The translations under genes were made by a program, and so were the position numbers. Shown one piece after another: positions 3,625 through 24,141 of a DNA stretch of 24,141 nucleotides. The first letter of the stretch is position 1, and each line of letters opens with the position of its first letter. The DNA comes from Candidatus Micrarchaeia archaeon. GTDB taxonomy: Archaea; Micrarchaeota; Micrarchaeia; Micrarchaeales; CABMGC01. The notes beneath the pieces are model-generated. The model searched no databases. It had not been told where the DNA came from and worked only from the letters and a program-made list of their open reading frames with translations. The stretch is from positions 1 through 24,141 of the forward strand of contig JBMFHL010000011.1 in NCBI GenBank assembly GCA_049976845.1, given 5' to 3'.

Positions 3625-4335
3625 TTATTTGAATGCGATTATAAGGGTCTTTATCTCGTGCAACGTCGGTTGAGAATTGCTTATTATTCTTTTAAAAGCG
3701 TTGTAGACTGCATCCTTGTCCCTTATATTCTTCCTGCTTATGCTACGCCTGAAAAGCTTGAGCAAAGCATTCACTTCTCTTGAATACTCTGAATGATCGG
3801 GCACTGCGGCTTTCTTTATTCTAGATGCATATGCATCTTTAAATTCGCTTTTTGTGAAAAGGTACAGCAATATTGCAAGCGCGTGCGATATGTTGAGAAC
3901 AGGGTAACTCTCGTTCGTTCCTATGTATGTGACTATGTCGCATTTTGACAGCTCTTCTATAGTTAATCCTATGTCATCCCTGCCTATAACCAGAGCTATT
4001 ACTGCATTTTTCCTCTTTTTTAAAAGCTCGCTTACTTTATCTGCCGCCTCTTCAGCTAAGCAAACTTTTCTCGTGCTTGGAGAAGCCTTACTCAATACTC
4101 CGGTGGTACCTATTATTAAGTCGCAGCCCTTTATTGCATCATCAAAATTACTAAATATTCTTGCATCCTCAAGAAGAGCATGGGCATGCTTCGAAAACAT
4201 TATTGCCTTGCTGCCAGTCAATTTTGCCCTGGGCTTGACAACAAAAAGATTCTTTACTCCAAAGTTCTTTGCGACCCTCGCTATGTAGCCGAGATTCATC
4301 TGATATTTTGGCTCTACTAGTATAAGCCTGAGCAC
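3625..4335 (-). CDS. trmJ: SPOUT RNA methyltransferase, TrmJ family (tRNA position 32 2'-O-methylation)
   Basis: Motifs ILVEPKYQMNLGYIARVAKNFG, GRDDIGLT.EEL and YPVLNISHA. The GTG start directly follows the upstream TAA. Confidence 0.85.
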   Translation of the reverse strand: MLRLILVEPKYQMNLGYIARVAKNFGVKNLFVVKPRAKLTGSKAIMFSKHAHALLEDARIFSNFDDAIKGCDLIIGTTGVLSKASPSTRKVCLAEEAADKVSELLKKRKNAVIALVIGRDDIGLTIEELSKCDIVTYIGTNESYPVLNISHALAILLYLFTKSEFKDAYASRIKKAAVPDHSEYSREVNALLKLFRRSISRKNIRDKDAVYNAFKRIISNSQPTLHEIKTLIIAFK

Positions 4336-5560: not shown

Positions 5561-5962
5561 TTATGCACCCACTATCCTTGCTATGGCTCGCTTGTCCATG
5601 CTTTCTATTACCTCTACCTCGCTTCCTGGCTTTATTGAGTTCTTCAATTCCTCAGGTATGTCTATTTCGTATGTTTCATATGTCTCTAGATCCATGAGCT
5701 GCGCTGTAGCACCAGATACAGATACAACCTGAGCGCGCTTTTTGTTTATCACTGGAGCCTCTACATCAGCGCTGCTGGGCTTTAGCAAGGTTCTCTTTTG
5801 GCCGTCAAAAAGGCCTATTGCTGTTATCCTAACCTTTGCGGAGCCATGCTTGCCAGGGGCAGAGGTCTCTATGTCAACCACTTTGCACGGTATATTGTCT
5901 ATCAGTATAAATCTCCCTTCCTTTATTTCCTTGACTGAAACATACATAATTTCATTTGACAC
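5561..5962 (-). CDS. eif5a: Translation factor aIF5A
   Basis: Hypusine loop PGKHGSAK and AQLMDLETYET. GGTGA RBS precedes the GTG start. Confidence 0.96.
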   Translation of the reverse strand: MSNEIMYVSVKEIKEGRFILIDNIPCKVVDIETSAPGKHGSAKVRITAIGLFDGQKRTLLKPSSADVEAPVINKKRAQVVSVSGATAQLMDLETYETYEIDIPEELKNSIKPGSEVEVIESMDKRAIARIVGA

Positions 5963-6095: not shown

Positions 6096-7115
6096 TCAGT
6101 AGATGCTTTCGATTCCTTCTACTCTCAGGGGCGCAGACGCCTTTTCCCTGTCTATCTTGCTCCCGAACTTCGCCTTAACGCCAGTCACCACTGACATGAC
6201 TCTTATTTGGTCATTGAATTCTGGCATCATCCTTGCCCCGAATATCACGTTTGCGTTTGCTGAAAGGCCTTCAGTAACTCCATTGCCTATCCTTGTGGCT
6301 TCGCTTATAGTAAGATTTCCTCCTCCTGCCACATGGATCAATGCTCCTTTTGCCCCTTCTATCTCTACATCGAGAAGCGGGTGCTCAAGCGTTGACTTTA
6401 TGGCTTTTTCTACTCTGTCTGGCCCTGAACCAGAGCCTATGTTTATGACTGCTGTTCCTGTGTTCATTACCACATTCCTTAGATCAGCAAAATCCAAGTT
6501 TATCAGGCTTGGCAATGTTATTGTATCTGCTATGCCCTTAACCGCATTCCCAGTTACGTTGTCTACAAGCGAGAAAGCTTTTTCAATTGGCAGATTAGGC
6601 ACATATGAAAGCAGTCTGTCGTTCTCTATTATTATTGTTGTATCTGCCTCCTTGCTGAGCCTCTCTATGCCCCATTCTGCCTTCTGCTTTCTGCTTCTTT
6701 CCAGAGAGAAAGGATAGGTTACTGCCGCTATTACTGTTGCCCCCTGCTCCTTGGCAAGCCTTGCAACTGTAGGGGCTGCGCCTGTGCCTGTGCCGCCACC
6801 CATGCCCGCTGCTACAAAGACAAGATCATATCCTTGTATTGCGGATTCTATTTCTGCTCTGCTGGCATCTGCACATTTCTCTGCAACTTCAGGATATCCT
6901 CCAGCTCCAAGGCCATTTGTAATATCCTTGCCTATCAGCAGCTTCTTGTTAGCATTTATTATATTGAGATGCGCAAGGTCTGTGTTTATAGCAATAGTAT
7001 CAGCACTTTTTATACCACTTGAGAAGAGCCTGTTTACAAGGTTGCTTCCCTGCCCTCCAACTCCAACGACTGCGATCCTAGGGGTAAATAACCCGTAGTC
7101 TATTTCTTCGGCCAT
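6096..7115 (-). CDS. ftsZ: Cell division protein FtsZ, FtsZ2-like (downstream copy)
   Basis: Motifs GVGGQGSN, GLGAGG, AGMGGGTGTG, PFSLER and T7 loop PSLINLDFAD. GGTGA RBS supports ATG at 7115. Confidence 0.95.
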   Translation of the reverse strand: MAEEIDYGLFTPRIAVVGVGGQGSNLVNRLFSSGIKSADTIAINTDLAHLNIINANKKLLIGKDITNGLGAGGYPEVAEKCADASRAEIESAIQGYDLVFVAAGMGGGTGTGAAPTVARLAKEQGATVIAAVTYPFSLERSRKQKAEWGIERLSKEADTTIIIENDRLLSYVPNLPIEKAFSLVDNVTGNAVKGIADTITLPSLINLDFADLRNVVMNTGTAVINIGSGSGPDRVEKAIKSTLEHPLLDVEIEGAKGALIHVAGGGNLTISEATRIGNGVTEGLSANANVIFGARMMPEFNDQIRVMSVVTGVKAKFGSKIDREKASAPLRVEGIESIY

Positions 7116-7156
7116 TTTTTTCACCACTAAATATAAATAAAAGAAAATAAAATGAA

Positions 7157-8206
7157 TCAGATCATTTCTAGGTCGTTGTATTCGTTCTCTTTCCTTTCCT
7201 CTCCCTTGCCGATTATGCTGGAGCCTTTAACGCCTGTTACTATTGCCACTATCTCTATCTGGCCCTCATATCCAGGTATTATTCTTGCGCCCCACTTGAC
7301 GTTTGCCTTAGGGTCCATGCGCTCTGTTATAAGCTCTCCTGCCTTTATTGCGTCTCCCAAAGTGAGATCTGAAGCGCCTGATATGTGAATCAATGCTCCC
7401 TTTGCATTCTCGAAGTCTACATCAAGCAGCTTGTTCTTCAACACTGCTTCTGCTGCTGCAGTAACTTTCTCATTGCCCTTGCCATTGCCTACTGAGATGA
7501 AGCCCACATCTCCGCTTCCCATTATTGACCTGACATCCGCAAAGTCTATGTTTATCAGGCTTGGCTGGGTTATTGTCCAGACTAAACCTCCTATAGCCTT
7601 AGCAAGTATATCGTCAGCCACTGCAAATGCCTCTGGCATTGGAAGGTTTGGTACAAGCTTCACAAGCCTGTTGTTATCTAGTATTATAACGCTGTCACTG
7701 AACTTTCTGAGCTTTTGTATACCCTCTTCAGCCTTCAGCTTTCTTACTCTTTCAAGATCAAAAGGATAGGTTACCATTGAGACTACTATTGCACCTTGCT
7801 CCTTTGCTATTTGTGCAATTACAGGTATGGCACCTGTGCCTGTGCCGCCACCCATGCCCGCGCATAGGAACACCAGCTGCGCTCCTGCCAATACCTCTTC
7901 GAGGTTCTGCCTGTCTACTTCAGCAGCTTTTGCCCCTACATTCGGGTCTCCTCCTGCACCCAGGCCTCTTGTTATGCCCTTCCCAATAAGTATCTTTTTG
8001 ATCCTGTCATCAATTATTTTGAAATGCTGTGCATCCGTGTTAACAGCCACAAGTTCAGTGCCTTTCACACCAACCTTTATGAGCCTATTAACAGTGTTGT
8101 TTCCTGCTCCTCCAACGCCCACAGTAACTATTTTTATCTGTGGTGAGTTCCCTAGATCTTGCTCGTTGCCACTCTTGCCCAAGAATTCATTCGCGAAATC
8201 TACCAT
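7157..8206 (-). CDS. ftsZ: Cell division protein FtsZ, FtsZ2-like (upstream copy)
   Basis: Motifs GVGGAGNN, GLGAGGDP, AGMGGGTGTG, PFDLER, LDNNRL and TITQPSLINIDFAD. Confidence 0.96.
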   Translation of the reverse strand: MVDFANEFLGKSGNEQDLGNSPQIKIVTVGVGGAGNNTVNRLIKVGVKGTELVAVNTDAQHFKIIDDRIKKILIGKGITRGLGAGGDPNVGAKAAEVDRQNLEEVLAGAQLVFLCAGMGGGTGTGAIPVIAQIAKEQGAIVVSMVTYPFDLERVRKLKAEEGIQKLRKFSDSVIILDNNRLVKLVPNLPMPEAFAVADDILAKAIGGLVWTITQPSLINIDFADVRSIMGSGDVGFISVGNGKGNEKVTAAAEAVLKNKLLDVDFENAKGALIHISGASDLTLGDAIKAGELITERMDPKANVKWGARIIPGYEGQIEIVAIVTGVKGSSIIGKGEERKENEYNDLEMI

Positions 8207-15040: not shown

Positions 15041-15148
15041 AGCCCCAGGAGGGAATTGAACCCTCGGCCTCCTGTTTTCCTGCGCTTCTTGCCCAAGCTT
15101 CTTTGAGAAGCTTACGAGACAGGCGCTCTACCACTGAGCTACTGGGGC
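15041..15148 (-). tRNA. tRNA-Thr(CGT) with a 36-nt intron at 37/38 (intron 15077-15112)
   Basis: Acceptor GCCCCAG/CTGGGGC, discriminator T, D arm GCTC-AGTGGTA-GAGC, anticodon stem CCTGT/ACAGG, loop CT-CGT-A^A, T arm GAGGG-TTCAATT-CCCTC. Mature length is 72 nt. Confidence 0.95.
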
Positions 15149-15200: not shown

Positions 15201-18200
15201 ATGAGCGAACCCAGTACGCCACAACAGGATAATAATCCAGGCACTGCAGATGCTACGCAGAGACCACCGCTTGAGAGTTTTATTCCTAATACACCTAATG
15301 CTAACAATTTTAACACTGCAAGCCAGGGCCCACAGGCAGGCCCTAGTCCAAGCCCGCAGGCAGGGCCAAAGCCAACAGCTCCAAAATCTGGCTCGCATAT
15401 GCCAATTATCTTTGCGATTGCAATAATTGTAATAGTTATTGCTGCAGCTGCGGCGTTCATGCTTAGCTCACATTCAAAAACTACAAGCAGCACGACAAGC
15501 ATATTGACTACTACTGTAAAGCAGCCTACTATGGCAGAGATAACTAGCTGCATGGATATTAAGAGCCCCGGAAGGTATTACTTGACAAAAAACCTGAGCG
15601 TCAGCTTGTCTAGCGGCGCATGCATAAACATAACCTCAAGCAATGTTGAATTGATTGGCAACTCCAATATGATAAAAGGGAGCGGGCCTTTCGTTGGGAT
15701 TCCGCCGTTTACATATGGCATAGAGGCAAGCAACGTAAGGAATGTTAGCATAACAGGATTCAATATTACGCAATTTTCATATGGTGTATACTTTGAAAAT
15801 GTGCAGGACTCAAGCTTGCGCGCGAGCAATATAACTAAGAACACCATGTCAAATATTTATTTGTCTAATTCATCATCAAACATATTCGCAGATGACTACG
15901 CGATGCTTGCAGCAAGCAAAGAAGGAGGCGTAAACATAAACGGGGGCGGCGATAATATTTTTATGAATGATACAGTATCTAACAATGCTTACCAGGGCTT
16001 TGTTGTCAACTCTACTGGCAACAGGTTCATGAATGATACGCTTACAAATAACCCCAACGATTTCATCTGCAATGGTGTTGCAGGATTTTCATCGTCTAAC
16101 TTATTCAGCAACACTGCATGCAAGAGGAGCAGTGGCTGCAGCTTCGCGCAGTGCTCCGTATCTAATGTACCTTTCAATCTTAGCAGCATAAAGCTTTCAA
16201 ATAGTATATCGACATGCGGGGCCATAATTGCTCCGGGCAGATACACGCTCGATTCAAATCTTTACGAAAATGAGTATTTGAACATGTCAAACCCACTTTC
16301 TAAAAGCGTAGCGTGCATAAACATACTCGCGCCCGATGTGGTGCTAAACTGCAATAGCCACAGGATAAGCAACGGTGGCTATGGCATATTATTGTCCGGC
16401 AATTTTAACACAAGCATAAGCAACTGCACTGCTTATAACAACACCTATGGCTTGTATATTAATGGCACATTTTACCCAAGGATAAGCAACGTGACCTTGG
16501 CAAATAACACATATGGCATGTACGTGAGCAACATGAATTCTGGCACCGCCATGTATACGAAAGCGGCAGGCAATAAATATGGCATGTTCATAAACAACAC
16601 AAACGGATTCACATTGAACAACTTTAATTACTCAGACAACGGCTACGGAATTTATGAAAACACAGGAGGAAGCGACATATTCAACAATGGAGCGGTGCTT
16701 GGAAACAAATACAGCGATTTATACTGCACCGCCGCTTCATACAATGTCACGCCAAGCCTATTCCAAGGCGTATCTTGCGGATTGACCGATTGCAGCTGGG
16801 GCACCTCGTGCGCAAGGCATGCGCTGCCTCCAATAAGCATGTATCCGATAGACAGCTGCATGAATATAACGCTGTCTGGCACGTACGGCTTGACAAGCAA
16901 CATGCAAGGAACACCTGGTTGCATAAACATAAAGACCAGCAACGTAAGCTTAGAGTGCAATGGCAAAAGCATAGTGGGCACCGCAGGCGGAAGCGCCATA
17001 GTGATATCTAATCAATCGAATATTGACATATCAAACTGCAGGATAAGCAGGTTTGGAACTGGTTTCTACGTAAGCAATTCTAGCTACATAACAATACAGA
17101 ACAGCAACATAAGCTCAGCTTCATATGGGATATTGCTTAATAATGTTAGCTATAGCAAGATGCTTGATGACAATGCATCGATGTTCACAAATGCAGGTTT
17201 CATGCTCAAGAAGGTTTACAACAGCGTTGTTAGTAGGGATATTGCAATGAATGGCTTTGCTAATGCAAGCGGCTTTTATATAAGTAATTCTAGCAAAAAC
17301 CTGATTACATTCAACAACGCTACTGCAAACATATTCTATGGATTTGTCATATCAAACTCCAGGGGCAACAACGTATTCAACAACACCGCCACCAGCAATC
17401 TCAAATCGGACTATTACTGCTCTCCAGATTCCTCAGGATTATATGCAGAATCTGGAGGGGTTAATTTCGGCAATACCAAGGTTGACTGCAAGTGGCTCGT
17501 TGAATTGAACTCCTTGAACCTCGTTCCTACGTGCCTCTCGATAAGCTCTTCGTCTACACTTGTGCTAAGTCAGGACATGCTATATCCATATGACAACATA
17601 TGCTTTGACGTTTACAATACCAAAACAAGCAGCGCCAATGGCACAGTGATAAACTGCAATGGCCACACAATGCTTGCATCCAATGGCGGAACGCTCGTGA
17701 ACGTTGCAAATGCGAGCGGGGTTGAAGTTGAAAACTGCTACATAAAAGGATTCACGACACCTATAACGGCAAGGGGCGGCAGCATAACCGCATTGAACAA
17801 TACAATAGTCAATTCAAATGTATCTATAGCAATCACCAACAGCTCATATCCAAAGGTAATGAAAAATGTTATGCTCAATTCTTCGTATGGCGCGATATTG
17901 GTAAACAGCAAATATGGCACTATAGAGAACAATTTTGCTGCTGATGCGAATATTTCATATGAGATTGCAGGCGGCTCTGGATTCACTGTATCAAACAACA
18001 AGGCGCTTTATGGCAATATAGGCATGTACATAATAAACTCCACAACAAACATATTCCAGAACAACACGCTAGAGGATATGGGGAGGTATGGCATAGCATG
18101 CACAGGCTATGCTACGAACAATACGAGCCTTAACAAGGACTTCGGCAAAAATGCATGCTCTTCTAATTACGGGTGTTACTGGCTTTCTTCTTCGCCGCTT

Positions 18201-18215
18201 TGCAGCCCAAGTTGA
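15201..18215 (+). CDS. Membrane-anchored surface protein with four right-handed beta-helix (NosD/CASH/PbH1-like) modules
   Basis: Pro/Gln-rich N-terminus, a single TM helix (~15400-15465), a Thr/Ser linker, YGI.L/NN-type repeats, four Cys-capped modules and many N-x-S/T sequons. Confidence 0.85.
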   Translation: MSEPSTPQQDNNPGTADATQRPPLESFIPNTPNANNFNTASQGPQAGPSPSPQAGPKPTAPKSGSHMPIIFAIAIIVIVIAAAAAFMLSSHSKTTSSTTSILTTTVKQPTMAEITSCMDIKSPGRYYLTKNLSVSLSSGACINITSSNVELIGNSNMIKGSGPFVGIPPFTYGIEASNVRNVSITGFNITQFSYGVYFENVQDSSLRASNITKNTMSNIYLSNSSSNIFADDYAMLAASKEGGVNINGGGDNIFMNDTVSNNAYQGFVVNSTGNRFMNDTLTNNPNDFICNGVAGFSSSNLFSNTACKRSSGCSFAQCSVSNVPFNLSSIKLSNSISTCGAIIAPGRYTLDSNLYENEYLNMSNPLSKSVACINILAPDVVLNCNSHRISNGGYGILLSGNFNTSISNCTAYNNTYGLYINGTFYPRISNVTLANNTYGMYVSNMNSGTAMYTKAAGNKYGMFINNTNGFTLNNFNYSDNGYGIYENTGGSDIFNNGAVLGNKYSDLYCTAASYNVTPSLFQGVSCGLTDCSWGTSCARHALPPISMYPIDSCMNITLSGTYGLTSNMQGTPGCINIKTSNVSLECNGKSIVGTAGGSAIVISNQSNIDISNCRISRFGTGFYVSNSSYITIQNSNISSASYGILLNNVSYSKMLDDNASMFTNAGFMLKKVYNSVVSRDIAMNGFANASGFYISNSSKNLITFNNATANIFYGFVISNSRGNNVFNNTATSNLKSDYYCSPDSSGLYAESGGVNFGNTKVDCKWLVELNSLNLVPTCLSISSSSTLVLSQDMLYPYDNICFDVYNTKTSSANGTVINCNGHTMLASNGGTLVNVANASGVEVENCYIKGFTTPITARGGSITALNNTIVNSNVSIAITNSSYPKVMKNVMLNSSYGAILVNSKYGTIENNFAADANISYEIAGGSGFTVSNNKALYGNIGMYIINSTTNIFQNNTLEDMGRYGIACTGYATNNTSLNKDFGKNACSSNYGCYWLSSSPLCSPS

Positions 18216-19127: not shown

Positions 19128-19209
19128 AAAATCCCCGCTAAGTTTAAATTAAGAGAAGTTATATAGTTATAGGAGAGAAAATTTATAATACATCCTCTTG
19201 GTGCTTATT

Positions 19210-20955
19210 ATGATAAGGCAGCCGATAATTGTAGTCATGGGGCACGTTGATCATGGAAAAACTTCGCTGCTTGACAAGATAAGAAACACTGCAATAGCCC
19301 ATAAAGAAGCAGGAGGCATAACGCAGCACATAGGGGCTAGCGAGGTTCCAATAGAGGCAATAAACAAGATATGCGGCAATCTGCTTGCAAAATTCAACGT
19401 CAAGATAACAATACCTGGGCTCTTATTTATAGACACGCCTGGGCACGAGGCATTCACCAATTTGAGGAAACGCGGAGGCAGTGTTGCAGACCTAGCTATA
19501 CTTGTCGTTGATGTTACAAAGAACTTCGAACCGCAGACGTATGAAGCAATAAACATACTCAAAGAGTATAAAACACCGTTCATAGTGGCAGCCAATAAAA
19601 TAGACTTAATTACAGGGTGGCGCAGCAACAAGACTGTAAGCTTTCTTGAATCGCTTGGCATGCAGCAACAGAATGTGGCTGCAGATTTAGAAAACAAGGT
19701 ATATGATATTATAGGGAAGCTGAGCGAAGTTGGCTTCAACAGCGAGAGGTTCGACAGGGTCAAGAACTTCCAGAAAGAGATTGTCATAGTGCCTGTGAGC
19801 GCTAAGACAGGTGAAGGCATCGCCGAACTGCTTGTCTATGCCACAGGGTTGGCGCAGAAGTTCCTCGAAATGAGGCTAAATATAGAGGTTAACGGGCCTG
19901 GAAAAGGCAGCATCATAGAAAGAAAAGAAGAGAGAGGATTGGGCACCACAATAGATGTAATACTTTATAATGGCACGCTCAAAGTAAATGACAGTATCGC
20001 ATTCGCCACGAGCACCGGTGTAGGCATATCAAAAATAAAAGCTTTGCTCAAGCCGAGGCCGCTGCAGGAGCTCAGGGAGTCTTCAAGCAAATTCTATTAT
20101 GTAGATTCTGTGAGCGCAGCTTCAGGGGTAAAAATAAGTGGAACGGGATTAGACGATGCATTGCCAGGATCGCTTGTAATTTCTACTGATCTTCAGGATT
20201 ATGAGAAGGAGATAAGCTCTGAAATAGAGGAGGTTTTCACTACAGAGAAAAAAGGCATAATTCTCAAGGCTGACACTATCGGCACTTTGGAAGCGATATC
20301 AAAGCTGCTTGCAGGCATAGGGGTCAGCGTGAGCAAGAAGGGGCTTGGCAACGTAACCAAAAGGGACGTGCTTGATGCGTATGCGATGCGAGCACTTGAT
20401 CCGTATAGCTCAATTATACTTGCATTTAATGTCAAATTAGACGAAGACGCCCTTGCCGAAAGCGAGGCAACTGAAGTTAAGATAATAAACGAAAATATTA
20501 TATACAAGATAATAGACGATTACAAGGAGTGGCTCGAGAAGGAGAAGGCGGATGCAAAGAGCAGGGTTGAAAGATCGCTTATATTTCCTGGCATAGTGCG
20601 CGTTATTCCAAACAACTGCTTCAGGGTCTCGCATCCTGCGATATTTGGAATAAATGTAATTGCAGGTAGGCTTAGGCAATCATATCTGCTCATGAAGAAA
20701 GATGGTAACATTATAGGCAGGGTAAAGGAGATGCAGGATAATGGCATAACGCTGCAGGAGGCTAAGAAGGGTGACAGCGTAGCCATATCCATAGAAGATA
20801 TAACATTTGGAAGGCAGATAAAAGACGACGATATACTATATACTTTCATAAATGACGAAAATGAGAGGCTGCTCCGCTACAAATTCAGCGACATGCTGAG
20901 CGATGAGGAAAAAAGCGTATTAGACGAGATCTCAAAAATAAAGGCGCACAAGTAA
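19210..20955 (+). CDS. infB: Translation initiation factor aIF5B (IF-2)
   Basis: Motifs IRQPIIVVMGHVDHGKT, EAGGITQHIGA, DTPGHEAF and NKID. No intein is present. Confidence 0.97.
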   Translation: MIRQPIIVVMGHVDHGKTSLLDKIRNTAIAHKEAGGITQHIGASEVPIEAINKICGNLLAKFNVKITIPGLLFIDTPGHEAFTNLRKRGGSVADLAILVVDVTKNFEPQTYEAINILKEYKTPFIVAANKIDLITGWRSNKTVSFLESLGMQQQNVAADLENKVYDIIGKLSEVGFNSERFDRVKNFQKEIVIVPVSAKTGEGIAELLVYATGLAQKFLEMRLNIEVNGPGKGSIIERKEERGLGTTIDVILYNGTLKVNDSIAFATSTGVGISKIKALLKPRPLQELRESSSKFYYVDSVSAASGVKISGTGLDDALPGSLVISTDLQDYEKEISSEIEEVFTTEKKGIILKADTIGTLEAISKLLAGIGVSVSKKGLGNVTKRDVLDAYAMRALDPYSSIILAFNVKLDEDALAESEATEVKIINENIIYKIIDDYKEWLEKEKADAKSRVERSLIFPGIVRVIPNNCFRVSHPAIFGINVIAGRLRQSYLLMKKDGNIIGRVKEMQDNGITLQEAKKGDSVAISIEDITFGRQIKDDDILYTFINDENERLLRYKFSDMLSDEEKSVLDEISKIKAHK

Positions 20956-23354: not shown

Positions 23355-24141
23355 AGTGAGCTTGTGTGTTAGGATTTAGTAGTGGTGCGCTCGCAAGTCG
23401 CCGAAGCTCCCTGCTTACACGCCCACCCTATCAAGGCCATGTACTATGGCCACCCTAAGTATCTCGTTTCGGATGCGGCTTCGTCCTTAGATGCTTTCAG
23501 GGCTTATCCGCTTGGCGCGTGGCTACCCGGCAGTGCCAAAATGACAACCGGTAGACTAGAGGCGCCGGTGTTTCGTTCCTCTCGTACTAAAAACACCTTA
23601 TCCTCTGATACTAACACTTCCAGTAGATATTACCGTACTGCCTCGCGGCGTACTTAACTCAGCTCATGTAGGTCTTTGATGGACGAGCAGTCCAGCCCTT
23701 GGTGGCTCCTGCACCACCAGGATGACCTAAGCCCATATCGGTGTATCAAACGGCTGGGTCGATATGTACTCTCACCAGCCACGAACCGGTTACCTCTAGA
23801 GTAACTTGTCTGACAGCTTGGAGCCCCATTAAAAGAGCTTCCAACGTTCGTTAAGCCCCTGTTTCCAGTCTGCATCTCCCGCTTTTTGAGATACAGTCAG
23901 CCCTGCATTTGCCTTTGCGCTTTGCGGTGGGTTCCCAACCCACCTAAGCAGAGCATTGGCCACTTTCGTTTCCTTATCGAAAGCAACCGCCCAGTCTAAC
24001 TATCCACCTGCAGCTGTCCTATTTCTAGTAAGATGCGCAGCAAACGGAGAGTGGTGTTACAAGTTCGCTCCACATAGGCCGAAGCCCATGCTTCGACGCT
24101 CCCACTTACGCTTTGCAGCGTCCGCAGCACAACAACAACAG
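23355..24141 (-). rRNA. 23S rRNA, 3' portion (domains V-VI; truncated by the window; 3' end approximate)
   Basis: The reverse complement contains the sarcin-ricin loop AGTACGAGAGGAAC, CTGAAAGCATCTAAG, CATATCGAC and PTC segments. No 5S rRNA follows it. Confidence 0.97.

Follow-up and report, generated by a model that had tools for sequence, protein, structure and literature searches.

How far the active site of the ribosome can be altered in a living cell is the question raised by an rRNA gene at the end of a micrarchaeal contig. No RNA is regarded as more highly conserved than the peptidyl-transferase center (PTC), and E. coli mutants altered at several PTC sites at once are difficult to obtain. 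The stretch of DNA analyzed here, referred to as the window, is a complete contig of 24,141 bases (JBMFHL010000011.1 of assembly GCA_049976845.1, Candidatus Micrarchaeia archaeon) from a 731 kb, 90%-complete genome in 52 contigs, and it comes from a member of the Micrarchaeota (DPANN). Its minus strand carries, at 23358-24141, an archaeal 23S rRNA gene of which the 3' 800 nt are present, and the PTC encoded there departs from that of E. coli at many positions. In our view this gene probably encodes the true large-subunit rRNA, and the only one, of a clade made up of two micrarchaeal families, f1 (which includes the window) and f3; its PTC was probably rewired along the stem leading to the clade, with the catalytic inner shell untouched.

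The gene assignment comes from a match to the archaeal large-subunit model RF02540 (635.9 bits, E 1e-198, model positions 2188-2987, or approximately E. coli 2100 to the 3' end), which exceeds the gathering threshold of 50 bits and ends only at the contig end. A search with RF02540 over the contigs of the same genome returned 0 matches, yet cmscan of the window gives 636 bits and a DNA search also matches; we take the former result to be a tool miss.

E. coli numbering was calibrated on an E. coli 23S locus (L001), with the customary position names (A2451 etc.), and all rRNA coordinates below refer to the minus strand. The PTC ring strand 2444-2456 (23785-23797) reads AGAGGUAACCGGU, with the changes G2444A (23797), G2446A (23795), A2448G (23793), A2453C (23788) and C2456U (23785), and it keeps G2447 (23794), A2450, A2451 (23790) and C2452 (23789). 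The strand 2495-2510 (23731-23746) reads AUACACCGAUAUGGGC and carries G2495A (23746), C2496U (23745), C2499A (23742), U2500C (23741), G2505A (23736) and C2507G (23734), with A2503 (23738), U2504 (23737) and U2506 (23735) retained. Two further changes, G2582A (23659) and U2586A (23655), are found in the strand 2576-2586 (23655-23665; GAGCUGAGUUA), which keeps G2583, U2584 and U2585 (23656). G2582A faces G2507 to give G.A, and Infernal marks the 2507/2582 pair as non-canonical. The segment running from A2602 (23639) to GGU-AA-UAUC spans 23626-23639; GGU-AA-UAUC itself (23634-23626) stands for GGUCCCUAUC of E. coli. The 2609-2613 strand is 1 nt shorter than in E. coli and the other archaea sampled, and position 2057 pairs with the second base after U2609. 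The inner-shell bases A2451, U2506, U2585, A2602, G2553, G2583 and U2584 are all present.

The A and P loops are also altered. The A loop (helix 92, 2548-2560; 23681-23693) reads GGACUGCUCGUCC and carries U2554C (23687), with its stem pair 2550/2558 being A-U and U2552 and G2553 kept. The P loop hairpin (helix 80; 23985-23996) reads GACU-GGGC-GGUU, so that the loop has 4 nt compared to the universal 5 (GGGGC), with one G missing (23989-23992) relative to E. coli (CUGGGGCGG). The canonical CUGGGGCGG loop is present in all 15 Thermoproteota examined and in all 17 covered sequences of other Micrarchaeia. An earlier note on this DNA, made without database searches, had described a remodelled PTC with its inner-shell bases retained, and this description is supported: the eight substitutions that it named (G2446A, A2448G, A2453C, C2499A, U2500C, G2505A, C2507G and G2582A) agree in base and coordinate, as do the retained A2451, U2506, U2585 and A2602, and rereading gives the same GGU-AA-UAUC with 2610-2612 one nt short. 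To these the present analysis adds G2444A, C2496U, U2586A, U2554C and the short P loop, together with A2062U in relatives.

Is the sequence authentic? Logan contigs from other public runs, both hot-spring RNA-library and DNA runs, match the window with 0 differing letters (record 9 of X2 over 23508-23839, record 26 of X6 over 23611-23840 and record 16 of X2 over 23961-24141). The earlier note had called for a check against reads; contigs assembled from other runs cover all of the changed sites with 0 differences, and because these independent contigs carry the same letters an assembly error is excluded. The same 0 differences leave no sign of RNA editing in the run contigs covering the changed sites. 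Eight places do vary among the run contigs (23435, 23678, 23703, 23708, 23716, 23839, 23856 and 23858), and none of them is a site in question.

A degenerate second rRNA copy, which the earlier note had raised as a way in which its reading might fail, was looked for and not borne out. A DNA search finds one 23S match in the window's own genome (G000), and likewise one in each of eight genomes of the clade that consist of a single contig (G023, G077, G044, G051, G124, G131, G211 and G250). In the RF02540 alignment the sarcin-ricin loop (UAGUACGAGAGGAAC) shows no departure from the consensus, and the PTC states are common to 71 distinct f1 and f3 sequences whose identity to the window over this region is 76-95%. 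The recurrence of the states across 71 sequences of two families is more than chance would give, and the single copy in these nine genomes, the canonical sarcin-ricin loop and the maintenance of the states at 76-95% identity argue strongly against a degenerate second copy.

The phylogenetic reach of the changes was assessed in an alignment of 90 distinct Micrarchaeia sequences, contributed by f1 (37, window included), f3 (34) and 12 other families (19 in all). A scan of the genome collection with a 14-mer of the window had given at least 120 loci, chance matches included; of those checked, only L006, L078, L091 and L108 are 23S, and all four are from metagenome-assembled genomes (MAGs) of Micrarchaeota/Micrarchaeia. 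These four loci were left out of the 90-sequence set, two being on contigs already sampled and the other two assumed to be so.

Several states separate f1 and f3 from the remaining families. Position 2505 is A in all 37 f1 and 32 of the 34 f3 sequences (G in 15 and A in four of the 19 sequences from other families); 2507 is G in 36 f1 sequences (A in one) and 34/34 f3 sequences, and C in 19/19 of the others; 2582 is A in 35 f1 sequences (U in one, C in one), C in 19 and A in 15 of the f3 sequences, and G in 19/19 of the others; and 2446 is A in 35/36 f1 and 34/34 f3 sequences (G in 17 and A in two of the others). The P loop reads GGGC in 35/35 covered f1 sequences, GGAC in 34/34 of f3 and GGGG in 17/17 covered sequences of the other families, so that the shortened form is found in 69/69 covered members of f1 and f3 versus 0/17 elsewhere in Micrarchaeia. 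C2554 is present in 35/37 f1 and 19/34 f3 sequences, C2452 is mostly kept in the clade, and A2062 is replaced by U in 25 of the 28 relatives whose sequences include the 5' half of the gene. Every one of the 90 Micrarchaeia sequences (or every one covering the site) has A2448G, C2499A, C2496U and the 1-nt-short 2609-2613 strand, which are phylum-wide, not clade-specific. The inner shell is invariant throughout, with A2451 in 89/89 covered sequences and U2506, U2585, A2602, G2553, G2583 and U2584 in 90/90. Family f2, which shares an order label with the clade, has the basal states, and a tree of ribosomal protein uL3 splits f1 and f3 from f2 and the rest with support 100/99; the derived set thus maps to one branch. 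G2505A has a second origin in a clade formed by f11, f15 and f17, where it is accompanied by G2576U.

Within this alignment a number of lineages have peculiarities of their own. The f17, f11 and f15 sequences (L165-L168) form a separate clade on the uL3 tree (100/100), with C2579U in addition, a canonical C2507-G2582 and a uL3 finger tip of E(R/T)Q instead of WHP. All 19 sequences of the 12 other families (L152-L170) have A2503C, A2503 being kept in f1 and f3, and in most of them A2453 stands opposite A2499. The extreme f3 members (L171, which is G051, L241, L246 and similar sequences) have G2447A, C2452U and A2497C as well as an A loop that is 1 nt shorter (CUG-AAG for CUGUUCG), bringing the changed core positions to as many as 14 of 33; G051 combines these extreme states with a single-contig genome and one 23S copy. 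The f7 sequence L160 (G064) has insertions in the PTC region of 35 nt after 2586 and 51 nt after 2597 that resemble small archaeal rRNA introns, and the split 23S match of the f23 sequence L169 (G176) resembles one also. L142 (G003), which has the same genus label as the window, has a 23S only ~84-86% identical to it with the f3-type states U2500 and A2455; G003 is listed with 5% contamination, and the L142 contig may be mis-binned.

Many of the changes are paired. At 2453/2499, E. coli has A/C and most basal Micrarchaeia have A/A; of the 70 f1 and f3 sequences that cover the pair, 66 have C/A (G/U in three and U/C in one; one more is gapped at 2453), in agreement with the coordinated change that the earlier note had proposed here. 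Its second such proposal, at 2507/2582, also stands, as both partners are changed in f1 and f3: the pair is C-G outside the clade and G.A in 50, G-C in 20 and A-U in one of the clade's sequences, so that a pair reversed in orientation has in many cases relaxed to purine-purine. For 2456/2495 the claim of compensation holds, with C-G replaced by U-A in 69/70 f1 and f3 sequences. The proposed link of G2505A to the shortened 2610-2612 segment fails: the short strand is present in 90/90 Micrarchaeia, including the 15 of 19 other-family sequences that have G2505. Coordination between 2505 and 2610 was accordingly rejected, the short strand being phylum-wide and predating G2505A.

Further pairs become visible in the 28 relatives with the 5' half of the gene. 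Here 2064/2446 is U-A in 27/28, so that C2064U compensates G2446A; 2066/2444 is C-G in 17 and U-A in 11; and 2067/2443 is A-U in 27/28. Position 2057 and its partner are U-A in 14, U.G in two, C-G in eight, A-U in three and A/G in one, and three Watson-Crick types are therefore seen. The covariation score computed for a set of 14 named pairs is 0.299, compared to 0.169 +/- 0.007 for shuffles (0/500 reach 0.299) and 0.012-0.105 for slid controls; two intron-bearing rows and one partial row were also left out of this set.

Comparison was extended to 30 Thermoproteota and 30 Halobacteriota sequences, and G2505, C2507 and G2582 are invariant in 30/30 of each. The possibility that the states are common across archaea, which the earlier note had left standing, applies to one part of the set and not to the other: these three positions are invariant in the 60 other archaea, but both phyla show variation at 2453/2499, a few of the sequences have A2448G, and A2453C and U2500C are found in Thermoprotei as well as in the clade. 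A Thermoproteus-like group has G2447A, A2453C, U2500C, C2501A and U2504C. In some Thermoproteota (L173 and L180) A2062U (GAAGUCCC) is also seen beside the published PTC changes.

The extent of departure was expressed as a core index, the number of 33 positions that differ from the majority of the 60 other archaea, a majority that equals E. coli at all 33. The window scores 9, f1 8-9, f3 6-14, other Micrarchaeia 4-6, Thermoproteota 0-9 and Halobacteriota 0-2. With 9 of 33 core positions differing, the window has a highly divergent PTC in the sense of bioRxiv 10.1101/2024.11.12.623245. A scan of a metagenome collection for G2507 in its canonical ACCUCGAU context found four places, two of them non-rRNA and two bacterial-like 23S with G2582. 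The latter (metagenome contigs L309 and L311) have G2507 opposite the unchanged G2582 in an otherwise canonical PTC, and may be rare variants, pseudogenes or errors.

The closest known systems are the PTCs of Thermoprotei and Methanomethylicia, in which up to six positions vary within 2447-2453 and 2500-2504 (Nissley et al., bioRxiv 10.1101/2024.11.12.623245). Like these, the clade described here is archaeal, has clade-wide natural changes at positions that are near-invariant in bacteria, and keeps the catalytic bases; A2453C and U2500C are identical in both, and the Thermoproteus-like group has 8-9 changes on the core index, as in f1. The clade differs in belonging to another phylum (Micrarchaeota/DPANN) with mesophile-like rRNA G+C, and in its sites: G2505A, C2507/G2582, G2446/C2064, A2062U, the 1-nt-shorter P loop and the shorter 2609-2613 strand. 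Of the Thermoprotei set (G2447A, A2453C, U2500C, C2501A and U2504C), the window shares only A2453C and U2500C, its G2447, C2501 and U2504 being canonical. Variation at A-loop positions 2554 and 2555 only (U2554C and U2555C) has been reported with a 'CU' state mainly in Thermoproteota (Nissley et al. 2023, PMC9976906). The window has this same state (C2554, U2555), but the clade is DPANN with many further PTC changes, and some f3 A loops are shortened.

To the question of whether the changes were already catalogued, the answer is again divided: divergent archaeal PTCs with A2453C and U2500C are known, but the main text of 10.1101/2024.11.12.623245 does not treat this phylum, positions 2505, 2507 and 2582, or the P loop. 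That main text contains none of the terms 'DPANN', 'Micrarchae', 'G2505', 'C2507' and 'P loop', and its Fig. 2a and supplement might still show the clade. The entropy and logo analyses described there discarded any sequence with a gap in the PTC regions, a filter that could exclude f1 and f3. No paper on PTC variation in Micrarchaeota or DPANN came up in literature searches. The type of variant has so far been described only in unrelated heat-loving archaea; the general phenomenon is known, and what is new here is the extension of the divergent archaeal PTC to a new phylum and new positions.

Two further sets of comparisons come from mutants. Published work does contain the resistance alleles cited by the earlier note: in halophilic archaea, A2453C and U2500C are associated with anisomycin and linezolid (cited in the discussion of 10.1101/2024.11.12.623245), and in enterococci G2505A is associated with linezolid. 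These are the same substitutions at the same positions as in the clade, but they are single mutations with fitness costs, whereas the clade has them all fixed alongside as many as a dozen others. Engineered E. coli ribosomes, altered in segments that we take to be 2057-2063 and 2502-2507, are the other comparison. They too carry many simultaneous changes in the same two strands (bioRxiv 10.1101/733584), but assembly defects are announced in the title of that work, and the clade's set comes with compensating partners in what is, to all appearances, the only rRNA that these living organisms have.

How, then, could such a ribosome work? The second shell has been exchanged, with A2453.C2499 becoming C.A and C2507-G2582 becoming G-C or G.A, and the closing pairs of helix 74 (H74) and helix 89 and the 2057/2611 pair are compensated. 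The shortened P loop still has a GG dinucleotide, which presumably holds the CCA end of tRNA. The altered bases would form alternative hydrogen-bond networks that place the invariant bases normally, so that catalysis would be normal, by analogy with the cryo-electron microscopy (cryo-EM) structure of the Pyrobaculum calidifontis ribosome, in which rearranged base triples hold the non-varying nucleotides in place (10.1101/2024.11.12.623245). Near-neutral change, compensated step by step, is the likely cause, in a fast-evolving lineage with small genomes and against an archaeal background that permits it; the PTC is still changing within the clade. A number of the sites are forgiving in other settings: A2448, A2503, G2505, A2062, C2496, U2586 and G2253 are mutation-tolerant in E. 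coli cell-free assays (d'Aquino 2020, PMC7049736), and poly(Phe) synthesis still proceeds when A2453 is abasic (PMC2919715).

Several points weigh against this account. The window's own genome does not include the 5' 2100 nt of the 23S gene, a search with the 5' part from a relative finding none on its other contigs, and the states at 2057-2067 come from relatives, whose identity to the window is 93% where the two overlap. Presence in an RNA library is by itself no proof of transcription. No compensating partner was identified for the G.A at 2507/2582, A2505, U2500C, A2062U or the missing P-loop G, and A2448G and U2586A are likewise without visible compensation. The comparison outside Micrarchaeia covers two archaeal phyla with 30 sequences each, neither of them DPANN. 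Single A2453C and U2500C mutations inactivate or cripple E. coli ribosomes (10.1101/2024.11.12.623245), and we therefore infer full function here only from single-copy status and conservation. Normal catalysis in the clade is a prediction from sequence and from the Pyrobaculum analogy.

A bolder extension of the rewired PTC is that the f1 and f3 ribosome has the most divergent natural active site of any cellular organism, with altered holding of the CCA ends and the nascent chain. Its elements would be the 4-nt P loop, A2505, the purine-purine 2507.2582 beside G2553 and U2062 at the tunnel entrance, joined in some members by the shortened A loop with G2447A and C2452U. We regard this as doubtful. 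It would entail altered inhibitor binding, stalling or termination behavior, or a broader substrate range, and engineers of PTCs with many mutations would gain a template from nature that evolution has already tested.

Drug binding enters in two ways. On the account we prefer, compensated rewiring of the second shell, an altered A-site cleft and tunnel-entrance pocket would be a likely by-product, with lower affinity for anisomycin-, oxazolidinone- and phenicol-like PTC inhibitors, whether selected or not; intrinsic drug resistance and altered substrate tolerance, both suggested by the earlier note, may follow from the sequence changes. Alternatively, the changes may have been selected against PTC inhibitors made by neighbors in the community, resistance being the function and not a by-product. 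The known resistance alleles A2453C, U2500C (anisomycin and linezolid) and G2505A (linezolid) fit such selection, as does the twofold origin of G2505A in Micrarchaeia, and inhibitor evasion has been suggested as a consequence in Thermoprotei (10.1101/2024.11.12.623245). However, the changes in the H74 pairs, 2057/2611, the P loop and the A-loop stem lie outside the cited resistance-allele sites, and the f3 drift at 2447, 2452, 2555 and 2556 looks like relaxed tolerance, not a single selected solution. Selected drug evasion is unlikely to be the explanation.

Still less probable, in our view, is functional re-tuning, by which the rRNA would have co-evolved with proteins or substrates (the uL3 finger, factors reaching the PTC, the holding of CCA) and the A and P sites would differ in, for example, substrate tolerance, stalling or termination. 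The P loop is 1 nt shorter and C2507-G2582 adjoins the A-loop G2553; the basic thumb of uL3 contacts helix 90 and C2611, and uL3 modulates the mutability of 2453, 2500 and 2504 (10.1101/2024.11.12.623245). Just after the uL3 finger, NY replaces H(K/R) in 10/10 f1 and f3 proteins versus 0/11 others (one other family has NK), a weak hint of possible protein co-evolution. The finger tip itself varies phylum-wide: its tryptophan is present in 4/6 f1, 0/4 f3 and 5/11 other proteins and does not track the rRNA states, and its loss, varying in all groups, was rejected as a correlate. The hypusine loop of the aIF5A encoded in the window (SAPGKHGSAK; 5561-5962, minus strand) is canonical, which also speaks against re-tuning.

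An artefact, a pseudogene, a mis-binned fragment or a thermal adaptation like that of the Thermoproteota A loop is highly improbable: the gene is cut by the contig end in an incomplete MAG, hot-spring runs hold the sequence and U2554C gives the Thermoproteota 'CU' state, but the identical independent contigs, the 71 related sequences with eight single-copy, single-contig genomes among them and the intact sarcin-ricin loop and inner shell largely refute artefact and pseudogene, and the median G+C of the rRNA fragment (f1 0.52, f3 0.51) is not above that of other Micrarchaeia (0.54) and far below that of Thermoproteota (0.63), so that clade-wide thermal adaptation is not indicated.

A whole archaeal clade living with 8-14 changes in 33 core positions, among them G2505 and C2507-G2582 and a 1-nt P-loop deletion, carries the divergent-PTC phenomenon into DPANN and to new positions. 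Intermediates are visible, as G-C, G.A and A-U at 2507/2582 and as wobble pairs in both orientations at 2453/2499, and they mark a stepwise natural trajectory from basal Micrarchaeia to f1 and f3 and on to extreme f3. Ribosome engineering can take this trajectory as a guide, and it leads one to expect unusual inhibitor profiles. Conservation surveys that drop gapped sequences can miss such lineages.

The other genes of the window are ordinary housekeeping genes, including aIF5A, aIF5B, two FtsZ, a DNA ligase and a SpoU methyltransferase among others. The contig that carries the rRNA gene thus also encodes aIF5A, aIF5B (19198-20955, plus strand) and the SpoU-family RNA 2'-O-methyltransferase (3625-4335, minus strand). 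The FtsZ/tubulin-family genes form an adjacent pair on the minus strand (6096-7127, 343 aa; 7157-8206, 349 aa). A 1004-aa protein with right-handed beta-helix/NosD repeats (15201-18215, plus strand) is probably a surface protein. Rfam predicts two tRNA genes on the minus strand (118-265, 148 nt, 48 bits; 15041-15148, 108 nt, 64 bits) where ARAGORN gives none in the window, and their lengths suggest that they are intron-containing tRNAs.

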